This document shows positions 1 to 3,000 of a stretch of DNA of 42,756 nt, piece after piece. The stretch lies in the IMG/VR virus record IMGVR_UViG_2778261067_000008, positions 1 through 42,756 of that record; one strand, written 5' to 3'. Position numbers: made by a program. The first letter of the stretch is position 1. The number at the start of each line of letters is the position of its first letter. The stretch is from a virus. Taxonomy: Duplodnaviria; Heunggongvirae; Uroviricota; Caudoviricetes.

Positions 1-3000
1 ATGTCAAGTATAATAGGAAGTTCAAGAGATTACTTTAATAAAAGCCTCAACTCAAATCAATACGATAATAAAAATGTAAGCTCGGAAAAACTTAAGGATA
101 TGTATAATAAATCGGTTGATTATGCAACGATGAGTAATCGCGCTGCGATTATTGCAAAAATAGATTTGTTTATTCAGAGGATTACCCATAATTTATGGAC
201 TGCAAGTGAAAAGAATGTTTCCTTAATTGGACGAATAAATGCTCTCAAAGATTGGGTTGACGAGTGTATTGTAGAGTGCACTAATGAGCAATTAGGTGAT
301 CGTGACTATATTTCTGCATTTGTAGAACGGGCGATTTTTCATTATGCGATGGATTTTGTTTGTAATCCAATGGAAAATAGCGATGCAACTCTAATAGACA
401 GGTGTACTTTCGATGTAATAAATCAGAATGACCTTCCCTCCGCAATTCAGCTATTTTATGATAAACCCTATGGTAAAGTACCTGTAGCGTCATTACATCT
501 AAAAACTGTAAGCGAAGGTTTTTTAAATTTGGAAAATGCATATAAAGCAAAGAACGATGCTCGCTTAAAACCCTTGGCTTCCCTTTTACTTTCATTCTCA
601 TATGGTAGTGCATCAGCTGATATCATAGCAACAGCACAAAGAGTTAATGATTATTGTGAAAACCACATAACAAGTAAGATAAAAATATTATCTCGTCAAG
701 TGATGAAAAAAAGCCTGAGGGATATGAAAGAATTAGTAGATAAAAATGAACTGGATTTTAATTTAATTCTGAATGAGAGGAAAAAGAAGGCTGAAGAAGA
801 CAATAAAGACATCACAGACATTACAAAAATGCAGGCTGCAGGTGAGACGTTAATTAAATTCGTTCAATCATTTGACCCAGACTCAACGGGACCCATTGTA
901 ATTGGCAAAGATATGAATGACAAAGATATAAATGACAACGATCTCATTAACGAAGATATTATTAAGTTCATTTATGACCTATTCGGTATTGTGTTAAAAA
1001 AATAAAATGTGAATTTTCTCTGTAGTATGGAATTTTTTACATAAAAGAACCCAACATTGCTTGGGTTCTTTTTTATCTATCATTGCCATTCGCCGCGAGA
1101 TAGTTCAACACGCTTTTATGTATGATTTTTTATTTATCGTCGAAACTGAATTGCTTATCATTGCTTTTCACAACGCTAACATCTAATAAGATTATTTCTT
1201 CAATTCGCGAGAGCGTCACGCTTTGAAGGGATCTCATTTTTCTTTTTCAAAGAGCCAGGCGCTTCCTGTTGTTATGGTATAGTACCCCGCTATTGAGCCT
1301 CCTGAACAGTGATGCTGAATAACATAACTCCATGATATATCGTTAAAATAATCTCTACTTTTGAAAATGCACGGTAATTCTGAAATGCAAAAAATCAACC
1401 AAACCAGCGCAATGCCTGAAAAAACTGACGTTCACTGGAGTGGTCGGTTTAGCGTTGCACCAATGCTCGATAGGATGTACCGTTGTTGAAAAACAAGCAG
1501 TTATACACTCTGTGGGAGCCTATTGGGAACCCGGCGTTTTCATTTCAAGGTGTAATCCATACGCGGCTTAAGAATGAGATATAATGCGACTTTTAGTGTT
1601 CCGCTTGAGAGGCCATGATGCTTACCCTGGACGAGATAGGTCAATCAGTACGTAACAATATCCAGTTGATTATTGATCATGTCGGCTTACCTCTTGCTGT
1701 TGGTCCGCTCAGTGATGATGATTACAAGATTCTGTGTGGTGGCTATGGTGAGCTTGAATGGGACTATGCGTTAAGTACCTATGGCAACTCCAGAGAAAAG
1801 TATGAGTTCTGCATAAAACTTGTTCAGCAAGGTCGGGTTCAGGGAATACCATCAGGAGCAGCAATTTGTGTTTATGGGGTTGAAGAAAACATCTTTCGTA
1901 TCCATATGATCGAAAGGTTTTCTAGAGAAGATGAATCTCACCCATTGAAAGGGCGCATGGTTTTACTCACTCTTATGAGTGCTTTTATATTTTGTAAAGC
2001 TGTTGAATGTAAAGTTGTCCACATTGTAGAGCCAGTACCAGAACTGGTGCAGTATTACGAGTCTTTTGGTTTCCGCATGGAACAGTGCGGTTATGTGATG
2101 TCGGCAGTCATTGATGAGCTGCAGGATATCTTTCTTAAATTTGCTCAGTAGGTATAGACGAGAAGGGTCTACAAATTGTAGGATACCCGTCCAGATTACC
2201 TTAAAGGTACATCTATGGCAGTCGTTTTGTGCTTAAACTACTAAGAAACGATGTCACCAATCGACATGATCGATTGGCATAAGTTAGCGAAACAAGCTAG
2301 CTTTAAAGAAAGGGTTAGAGACGCCTTTACTGTCTCGGGAGTTTTCTATGAAAGATCAAAAAGCAACCAAGCCACAGGTTAAGTTCGACACAATGAAAGC
2401 ATTCGCAGGTATGGGTGCTGCTGTTGAAGTTCTGATGAAGGCTGCTCCTAATGCGTTCACTCACGCTACTGTCTCTGGTAAAGAGCAGCAGGGTAAGCTT
2501 CGTCGTCGCAAAGCAGCATGATCATAGCTGGTGCTTTTTGAAAACCCGCCTTCAGGCGGGTTTTTTCTTTAGTGATGTTCTTTGTCCTTCTGTTTGACTG
2601 TTCTGACCTGTTCCCACTCGATACGTCCTTCTTCTCGCCTTTTGTCTATGTATTCCGCAAGATCTTGAATATTGATGCAACGTTTTGCTTTTTGTGATGT
2701 GCCGATGCGATATGTTGGAACGGGCAACTTACAAGCGTTTGCTTTTGCTTCTGCCGTGGCTGGACTCATGCCAAAGTACTTTTGGCTAACTGCTGAGAGT
2801 TCAATGTTAGGGGTATTGAATTCAGCCATCAGTAAAAACAAGGTGTTCATAATTTTCTCCATCAAAACCGGCTGCACCCGGGAAAATCATAATTCTGTGC
2901 TGGTGGCAGGAATTAATTTCTGCCAGATAGCGGAAACATATTTTGCCTGATGACGGGCATCGGCTAGGGCGTTGTGCCGTTCGCCATCGAAAGGCATGTC

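Follow-up and report, generated by a model that had tools for sequence, protein, structure and literature searches.

A two-gene cassette pairing a predicted GNAT-fold protein with a small basic partner at the attL end of an mEp460-type prophage in dusA

Introduction

Two small genes lie at the attachment end of an Escherichia coli prophage, downstream of a host promoter orphaned by the integration, and they raise a twofold question: what do their products do, and does their expression depend on that promoter? The window, by which we mean the whole stretch of 42,756 nucleotides (nt) analyzed here (IMG/VR record IMGVR_UViG_2778261067_000008, positions 1 to 42,756), is E. coli DNA with a lambdoid prophage of the mEp460 type integrated in dusA. 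The genes, ORF178 (open reading frame (ORF) at 1615–2151, + strand; an acidic protein of 178 amino acids (aa), mEp460 gp23) and ORF57 (2348–2521, + strand; a basic protein of 57 aa, mEp460 gp24, PHROG 2741), are both annotated as hypothetical. The initial annotation of the locus treated them as accessory cargo driven by the dusA promoter and guessed at a GNAT-like fold for the larger protein. Prophages and islands with DusA-specific integrases were reportedly described by Farrugia et al. in 2015, and to our knowledge the cargo at the opposite end of such elements has not been studied. Islands in the dusA gene of Vibrio have also been described (PMC8409611). Comparison of related loci identifies window 1590–2570 as an autonomous two-gene accessory (moron) cassette, and its two genes as an evolutionarily linked pair that moves together between phage sites and other mobile elements. 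Its order is a promoter-like box, the GNAT-fold gene, a second promoter at the end of that gene, a structured leader of ~157 nt, the 57-aa gene and a terminator, and the interval is 100% identical to several O157:H7 chromosomes.

Results

All 108 fetched loci that encode an ORF178 homologue also encode one of ORF57, located 93–197 nt downstream in the same orientation, and a Shewanella relative of ORF178 with 42% identity has a recognizable 57-aa counterpart downstream. Five remote relatives found by profile only (22–33% identity) were also looked up. For one (P0112) the contig stops short of the next gene downstream; the other four (22–27% identity) all have an ORF of 57–70 aa 51–87 nt downstream (4/4), two of these small ORFs sharing the helix and E-A-A-G-K tail of ORF57 and two being too diverged to call. 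No locus with a readable downstream flank holds an ORF178-type gene alone. ORF57 occurs without ORF178 in 20 of 80 IMG/VR loci, where it is preceded by a Panacea antitoxin and toxin and the recombination joint lies 13 nt before its start codon. Of 5426 complete E. coli genomes, 562 match the cassette at all and 358 match at least 80% of it; in the remaining 204, the sampled members match the ORF57 end only.

The sites occupied by the cassette differ between hosts. In E. coli and Salmonella it occupies the att end in dusA; in Enterobacter it lies between the lysis genes and RusA/DUF968 genes, which an unannotated 201-aa ORF accompanies; in Edwardsiella it is upstream of the holin, between DUF968/Q-like genes and the lysis genes; and in Pseudescherichia it adjoins eamA at a prophage edge. 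A relative with 25% identity directly follows a serine recombinase/resolvase gene in loci L196 and L197 (1–3000), and other remote relatives lie inside a conjugative transfer region and at a chromosomal site adjoining pspF. The upstream neighbors in L196 and L197 vary, being either a DUF4238 protein or a Gp49/helix-turn-helix pair resembling HigBA, and the setting looks like a small variable defense island.

Among dusA phages, the same backbone of excisionase and exonuclease bears four different cargos in the interval between attP and xis. These include a Panacea antitoxin (PF13274) with its toxin (139-aa protein) and ORF57, joined 13 nt before the ORF57 start codon; a DUF4065 protein with a 182-aa protein; and a YafO toxin (PF13957) with a partner. 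Alternative cargo is carried by phages Lys8385Vzw (L010, 1986–3187), SKA5 (L011), phiSTEC1575-Stx2k (L192, 308–1352), and PhiR40_1 and PhiR55_1 (L002 and L193). The initial placement of accessory cargo at the att-proximal end therefore holds, and the compared genomes indicate that lambdoid phages integrating in dusA have a cargo hotspot between attP and xis, filled mostly by toxin–antitoxin pairs.

ORF178 is a real gene, with full-length homologues across Enterobacterales and Shewanella. Its start is more likely ATG 1618 (177 aa), because homologues open with a single methionine and the ribosome-binding site GAGAGG (1606–1611) is better spaced from this codon. The AlphaFold2 model (predicted local distance difference test (pLDDT) 93.5, predicted template modeling score 0.90, 31-sequence alignment) contains a complete GNAT core (b1-a1-a2-b2-b3-b4-a3-b5-a4-b6; b, strand; a, helix) plus an extra N-terminal helix, and its nearest structural neighbors include the protein N-terminal acetyltransferases NatD, Naa20, Ard1 and RimI. 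The predicted structure thus bears out the guessed GNAT-like fold and, by fold, ORF178 belongs to the GNAT superfamily. No Pfam model matched ORF178 at E ≤ 1, none matched in NCBIfam or PADLOC, and PDB searches with the single sequence and with a profile returned chance matches only and no GNAT. The family is small, comprising 93 proteins at E ≤ 0.001 in a profile search of 1.84 billion representatives. The loop between b4 and a3 reads H109-P-L-K-G113-R-M115 after a 13-residue coil, where the GNAT acetyl-CoA motif is Q/R-x-x-G-x-G/A. In an alignment of ORF178 and seven diverse relatives, L47, W49, L111, G113, F126, P140, Y148 and F153 are invariant; of these, only L111 and G113 belong to the loop. 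Y148 (Y-Y-E-S-F-G-F) pairs with the tyrosine of RimI LYESLGF in a low-confidence hhalign alignment of 7% probability. Outside the core, the most conserved part is the acidic segment S-D-D-D-Y-K-I-L-x-G-G-Y-G-x-L-E-W-D (residues 33–50), which spans a1 and a2, the helices that form the acceptor-substrate groove of GNAT proteins.

The ratio of nonsynonymous to synonymous substitution rates (dN/dS) of ORF57 is 0.04–0.20 against 13 relatives (dS up to 0.7), a constraint that marks it as a real gene and not a chance ORF. Nucleotide identity among relatives is 84–98% for ORF57 compared with 62–81% for ORF178. The two proteins are complementary in charge, with isoelectric points (pI) of 10.5 for ORF57 and 4.8 for ORF178. 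ORF57 is not hydrophobic (grand average of hydropathy −0.55), and its AlphaFold2 model, of low confidence (pLDDT 62), consists of a single basic, amphipathic helix (residues 15–32) with disordered tails. Conservation extends over F-D-T, the helical stretch G-A-A-V-E-V-L-M-K-A-A-P and, at the C terminus, E-x-Q-G-K with arginine or lysine residues after it. The protein found no match in Pfam, NCBIfam or PADLOC and chance matches only in PDB; its PHROGs match carries no functional label, and neither does that of ORF178. A hairpin over the ORF57 stop codon is possible (window 2521–2540, + strand), in which the end of the gene pairs with a conserved AGCTGGTGCTTT just past the stop (AAAGCAGC...GCTGGTGCTTT), before the terminator.

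Both genes have promoter-like boxes of their own, identified as consensus matches. The candidate −10 box of ORF178, TATAAT (1580–1585, + strand), is perfect, lacks a good −35 and was not called by a strict consensus scan; a TAnAAT-like hexamer stands ~30–37 nt before the GNAT ATG in most cassette contexts and is degenerate in some (TAAACT in Enterobacter; Photorhabdus). The predicted promoter of ORF57 (2155–2184, + strand) comprises a −35 box TAGACG (2155–2160), an 18-nt spacer and a −10 box TAGGAT (2179–2184). Such boxes sit just after, or overlap, the GNAT stop codon, and in 20 aligned cassettes TAGACG is invariant and the −10 box reads TA(G/C)GAT, five of its six positions being invariant. 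A comparable arrangement occurs in Xenorhabdus, and TTGACA follows the stop codon in a relative with 25% identity. No terminator is predicted between the two genes, and a literature search found no transcript data for the locus. The motif ACA(T/C)ATCTTTTACAAC was observed about 50–80 nt upstream of the GNAT start in loci L098, L099, L109, L018, L030 and L026, preceding the GNAT −10 box in non-dusA contexts but missing from cassettes in dusA; a regulator might bind it, or it could belong to another promoter.

An intrinsic terminator (2540–2571, + strand) closes the cassette, with a hairpin at 2540–2565 (11-bp stem, 6 G-C) followed by a T-run, and a hairpin and T-run follow the small ORF in most lineages; neither was evident there in Photorhabdus. 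The excisionase gene converges on this hairpin, its stop codon 3 nt short of it. The terminator had been described as strong and bidirectional: the + strand terminator stands, whereas termination on the − strand, where only four U follow and the scan made no call, is at best weak.

The leader of ORF57 (2191–2347, + strand, about 157 nt) is predicted to fold into five hairpins, P1 to P5, on the + strand, ahead of the Shine-Dalgarno sequence GGGAG (2337–2341), which lies in an internal loop of the folded leader. P1 (2193–2214) pairs UUACC with GGUAA; P2 (2216–2256) is variable, wholly different sequences forming a hairpin at this position in almost all lineages; P3 (2257–2277) pairs CCAAUCG with CGAUUGG; P4 (2281–2303) shows double changes in six of seven pairs; and P5 (2318–2336; GAGAC/GUCUC) directly precedes the Shine-Dalgarno sequence. 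P3 is the palindrome CCAATCGA-CATGA-TCGATTGG previously noted between the two ORFs, which is real and conserved; it had been called imperfect and placed at 2263–2283, whereas its 8-nt arms are perfect and it lies six bases to the left, at 2257–2277. Two features of P3 point to a + strand RNA hairpin rather than a protein-binding DNA palindrome: its many C-G to U-G and A-U to G-U substitutions, which would be mismatches on the other strand, and a loop varying from 3 to 7 nt.

The minimum free energy of the leader is −45.9 kcal/mol, with z = −3.61 on the + strand, where none of 200 shuffles was as stable, and z = −1.76 on the − strand, and the five-helix layout recurs in individual folds of most of 15 lineages; in L003 and L024 a shortened P2 clashes with P1. 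A covariance model of P1, P3, P4 and P5, built from 13 sequences and searched against the fetched loci, gave 29 hits (28 distinct). In the leader alignment 91.3% of cells are paired, compared with 22–46% when the partners are slid by 1–3 columns, and both partners have changed in 12 of 27 pairs, compared with 0–6 in the slid controls; none of 500 shuffles reached the observed values on four of five measures. Phages with ORF57 and no GNAT gene (Lys8385Vzw and SKA5 types) gave no match to the model, and Rfam returned no family at gathering threshold, the best matches in 1000–3000 being terminator-like fragments far below it. The thermodynamic z-score was rejected as a universal signature of the leader, being uneven and absent in Edwardsiella and Photorhabdus; Shewanella and Xenorhabdus spacers carry the stability signal (z −3.3 and −2.6). 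Because of this unevenness, the case for the leader is built on its architecture and covariation among Enterobacteriaceae, and the leader as described belongs to one clade of the cassette. Within these limits, covariation supports it as a candidate for a new cis-regulatory RNA motif.

Three other interpretations of the leader were rejected. A 43-aa ORF within it (2251–2382) is rich in indels between lineages and its reading frame is not conserved; pairing of the leader with the GNAT translation-initiation region gave cognate RNAduplex energies no better than non-cognate or shuffled ones; and the leader is not sRNA-17, a 193-nt ArcA-regulated small RNA from an mEp460-like prophage of E. coli K1 RS218 (PMC7719688), whose sequence maps to window 8374–8434. 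This segment (+ strand) contains exact matches to two stretches of sRNA-17 and lies ~6 kb inside the early-left region, outside the cassette. The 'intergenic' location of sRNA-17 was defined after hypothetical genes had been removed (PMC7719688).

The surrounding prophage end was mapped by comparison with free phage mEp460, which the window matches from 1364 onwards at 98% identity. A direct repeat of 117 nt (1364–1480 and 41340–41456, 80% identical) marks attL (1364–1480) and attR, and a three-way alignment with mEp460 attP places the crossover near ATGCTCGAT, at about 1465–1474. The orphaned 5′ fragment of dusA (1367–1489, + strand, ATG at 1367) is host DNA to about 1474 and then phage DNA up to a stop codon; it translates as MHGNSEMQKINQTSAMPEKTDVHWSGRFSVAPMLD and then diverges, its frame departing from dusA after ...SVAPMLD. 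At attR, a phage-borne promoter box and the first ~35 codons restore an intact 345-aa dusA ORF (41343–42380), which the integrase gene (40157–41254, − strand) adjoins. Since this arrangement agrees with that known for DusA-specific integrases, the earlier map of the prophage end is correct: the first backbone phage gene after attL is the PrtN-family excisionase (2569–2877, − strand; Pfam PF11112, 4e-23; PHROG 1300), outside the cassette, and the two ORFs lie between.

The candidate host dusA promoter, TATGGTATAGTAC (1273–1285, + strand), has a −10 box TATAGT (1278–1283) preceded by TG and is a consensus match only. Its box TATG.TATAGTAC is duplicated on the phage side, ahead of the surrogate dusA 5′ end, and window 41226–41456 (+ strand) mimics the host promoter and 5′ end at 1250–1480. 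Integration would therefore swap promoters, the phage copy driving the rebuilt dusA and the host copy facing the cassette; in the free phage, the phage-borne copy faces it. The cassette thus lies downstream of a dusA promoter, as first proposed, with no intrinsic terminator predicted on the + strand over 1072–1968, and because none intervenes, dusA read-through is possible as an extra input. The host gene upstream of dusA (1–1005, + strand), whose product is a DUF2713 protein of 334 aa (Pfam 2e-53), ends ahead of a strong terminator at 1043–1072.

Discussion

Lambdoid morons, as the Hendrix group defined them, are accessory units with their own promoter and terminator between backbone genes. 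The cassette resembles them in its own promoter-like boxes and terminator, in its presence/absence and replacement polymorphism among otherwise syntenic phages, and in its locations, since the att-proximal end and the interval between Q and the lysis genes are both classic sites for morons; it differs in holding two promoters and a structured leader. With Panacea (PanA)–toxin and YafO-type pairs it shares the attP-to-xis position, the orientation and a length of two genes, and one Panacea variant keeps ORF57 and the terminator behind it, but the cassette proteins are unrelated to these pairs and lack recognizable toxin or antitoxin domains. Like other elements with DusA integrases, the prophage sits in the dusA 5′ end, supplies a replacement 5′ end and promoter, and keeps its integrase beside the rebuilt gene; unlike the present cassette, the subject of that literature is the integration system.

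In the GNAT/DUF1778 type II systems TacAT, AtaRT, KacAT and ItaRT, GNAT toxins acetylate aminoacyl-tRNA and ribbon-helix-helix DUF1778 proteins are the antitoxins (PMC9177977). The cassette likewise consists of two genes carried by mobile elements, one product having a GNAT fold and the other being a small, largely disordered partner. By contrast, ORF178 is acidic and shows neither a sequence relationship to these toxins nor a Pfam GNAT match; its partner lies downstream, consists of 57 aa with one helix and no ribbon-helix-helix/DUF1778 domain, and is better conserved than the enzyme; and the spacer of 100–200 nt carries its own promoter and a structured leader. The region upstream of ORF178, where a ribbon-helix-helix antitoxin would stand, contains only two short ORFs, of 43 and 33 aa, besides the dusA fragment at attL. 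Literature searches by protein and DNA strings and by topic found no description of the ORF178–ORF57 pair. These comparisons place ORF178 in a new GNAT clade of putative function, whose partner and leader are also of a new kind.

We hypothesize that ORF178 is an acyl or acetyl transferase working on or through ORF57. The lysine-containing basic tail of ORF57 (E-x-x-G-K-x-R-x-R-K) would fit the acidic groove of ORF178 (the S-D-D-D...E-L-E-W-D segment), acting there as substrate, pseudo-substrate inhibitor or adaptor. As no terminator is predicted between the genes, ORF57 would be made from both promoters and ORF178 from the first only, keeping the partner in excess, while the structured leader would tune ORF57 translation and the orphaned dusA promoter would add at most read-through and not be the designed driver. 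A toxin–antitoxin-like or anti-phage module expressed from the lysogen appears the most likely role: position, mobility, the disordered partner and the extra promoter of the downstream gene favor a toxin–antitoxin-like or defense function. Taken as one statement, an autonomous cassette whose GNAT enzyme depends on its partner, acting on or through ORF57 in a toxin–antitoxin-like or defense role, is plausible, if just short of probable. A broader proposal, which we regard as doubtful, is that the pair represents an unrecognized class of two-gene conflict modules on phages, conjugative elements and islands, in which a GNAT lacking a Pfam match is controlled by or acts through ORF57, the G-K tail entering the active site as substrate or pseudo-substrate, with supply set by the five-hairpin leader in Enterobacteriaceae and addiction or abortive-infection defense as the outcome.

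Several observations weigh against a toxin–antitoxin-like GNAT enzyme. The acetyl-CoA loop H-P-L-K-G-R-M departs from Q/R-x-x-G-x-G/A; across the broad alignment of 46 members, invariance is limited to W49 and Y148, and G113 joins them in narrower alignments only; and none of the 46 family members, remote ones included, matches a Pfam acetyltransferase model at E ≤ 0.01. Given the non-canonical loop and the lack of such matches, ORF178 could be a pseudo-enzyme or use another donor. PADLOC and NCBIfam match neither protein. In toxin–antitoxin pairs the toxin is usually better conserved than its antitoxin, the reverse of what ORF178 and ORF57 show, and ORF57 has no DNA-binding fold. GNAT toxins that acetylate tRNA are not known to be acidic, as ORF178 is; its pI of 4.8 speaks, only indirectly, against a tRNA-binding surface. 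A structured spacer of 100–200 nt is atypical for type II modules. As for the leader, its covariation alignment was fitted to the model and includes many close relatives, z-scores range unevenly from −0.8 to −5.8 across lineages, and the Edwardsiella and Photorhabdus spacers carry no thermodynamic stability signal.

Some of the same observations suit an enzyme of lysogenic conversion or counter-defense, free of any addiction or abortive-infection logic, in which the GNAT modifies a molecule of the host or of an incoming phage (a protein N-terminus or lysine, or a small molecule) and ORF57 is its cofactor, adaptor or substrate. This alternative is unlikely in our estimate, if the most serious of those considered. 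Protein N-terminal acetyltransferases such as NatD, Naa20, Ard1 and RimI are among the structural neighbors, the conservation of ORF57 beyond that of ORF178 is expected if it contacts a conserved host component, and ORF57 survives alone beside Panacea pairs. An enzyme never found without a partner that sometimes stands alone fits a toxin needing its antitoxin, and equally an enzyme needing a substrate or adaptor. However, every alternative cargo seen in the slot is a toxin–antitoxin-type pair, the ORF178–ORF57 pair also occurs on conjugative and chromosomal islands, by DUF4238 and HigB-like genes, and no target can be named for a non-toxic enzyme.

Less probable still is the dependence on dusA proposed by the initial annotation, whereby the cassette would have no meaningful promoter of its own and be expressed in the lysogen through integration behind the orphaned host promoter. 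The cassette is oriented as dusA, no intrinsic terminator is predicted over 1072–1968, a dusA-type promoter faces it both in attP and after integration owing to the phage copy of TATG.TATAGTAC and the 5′ end, and the candidate promoter of ORF178 has a perfect −10 but no recognizable −35. Yet the same internal boxes recur in late regions, at other att sites, in a conjugative element and at a chromosomal site, an upstream terminator stands directly before the cassette in many non-dusA contexts, and ORF57 has its own invariant −35/−10 pair. Conservation of promoter-like boxes across these contexts makes the orphaned dusA promoter unnecessary, and the proposed dependence is not borne out.

The separate promoters also raise the question of whether the GNAT gene and the small-protein gene, the latter with its own promoter, leader and terminator, are two independent morons that are neighbors by shared ancestry only. 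ORF57 stands without the GNAT in 20 of 80 viral loci and, apparently, in ~204 E. coli genomes with partial matches at the ORF57 end only, and a recombination joint lies 13 nt before its start; but the GNAT gene lacks a small downstream ORF in none of 108 loci, and shared ancestry alone is unlikely to have preserved the arrangement at 22–27% identity in unrelated elements, which renders this alternative improbable. We consider it very improbable that ORF57 is itself a toxin in the style of type I systems, limited by a long structured 5′ untranslated region and neutralized by GNAT acetylation: the small protein with its basic, amphipathic helix does follow such a leader, with the Shine-Dalgarno sequence in an internal loop, but it is kept without GNAT and leader in Lys8385Vzw- and SKA5-type phages, 204 of 562 matching E. 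coli genomes lack the full cassette (those listed matching the ORF57 end only), it is not hydrophobic, and the G-U substitutions indicate a structure confined to the sense strand, which speaks against an antisense RNA with such a fold (no promoter search covered the minus strand).

The cassette is common, occurring in many O157:H7 strains and in prophages of Salmonella, Enterobacter, Edwardsiella and Photorhabdus, yet both its genes are annotated as hypothetical. The pairing is unusually robust and the RNA leader appears new, yet uncharacterized morons are plentiful, and we therefore rate the significance as moderate. The comparison also marks the attP-to-xis interval as a cargo hotspot of dusA-integrating lambdoid phages. 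If the pair proves an ordinary moron with a modest phenotype, the gain would be the correct annotation of a widespread gene pair; if ORF178 and ORF57 do act as enzyme and partner, they would represent a new architecture among acetyltransferase-based conflict systems and give access to a GNAT clade that escapes sequence models.

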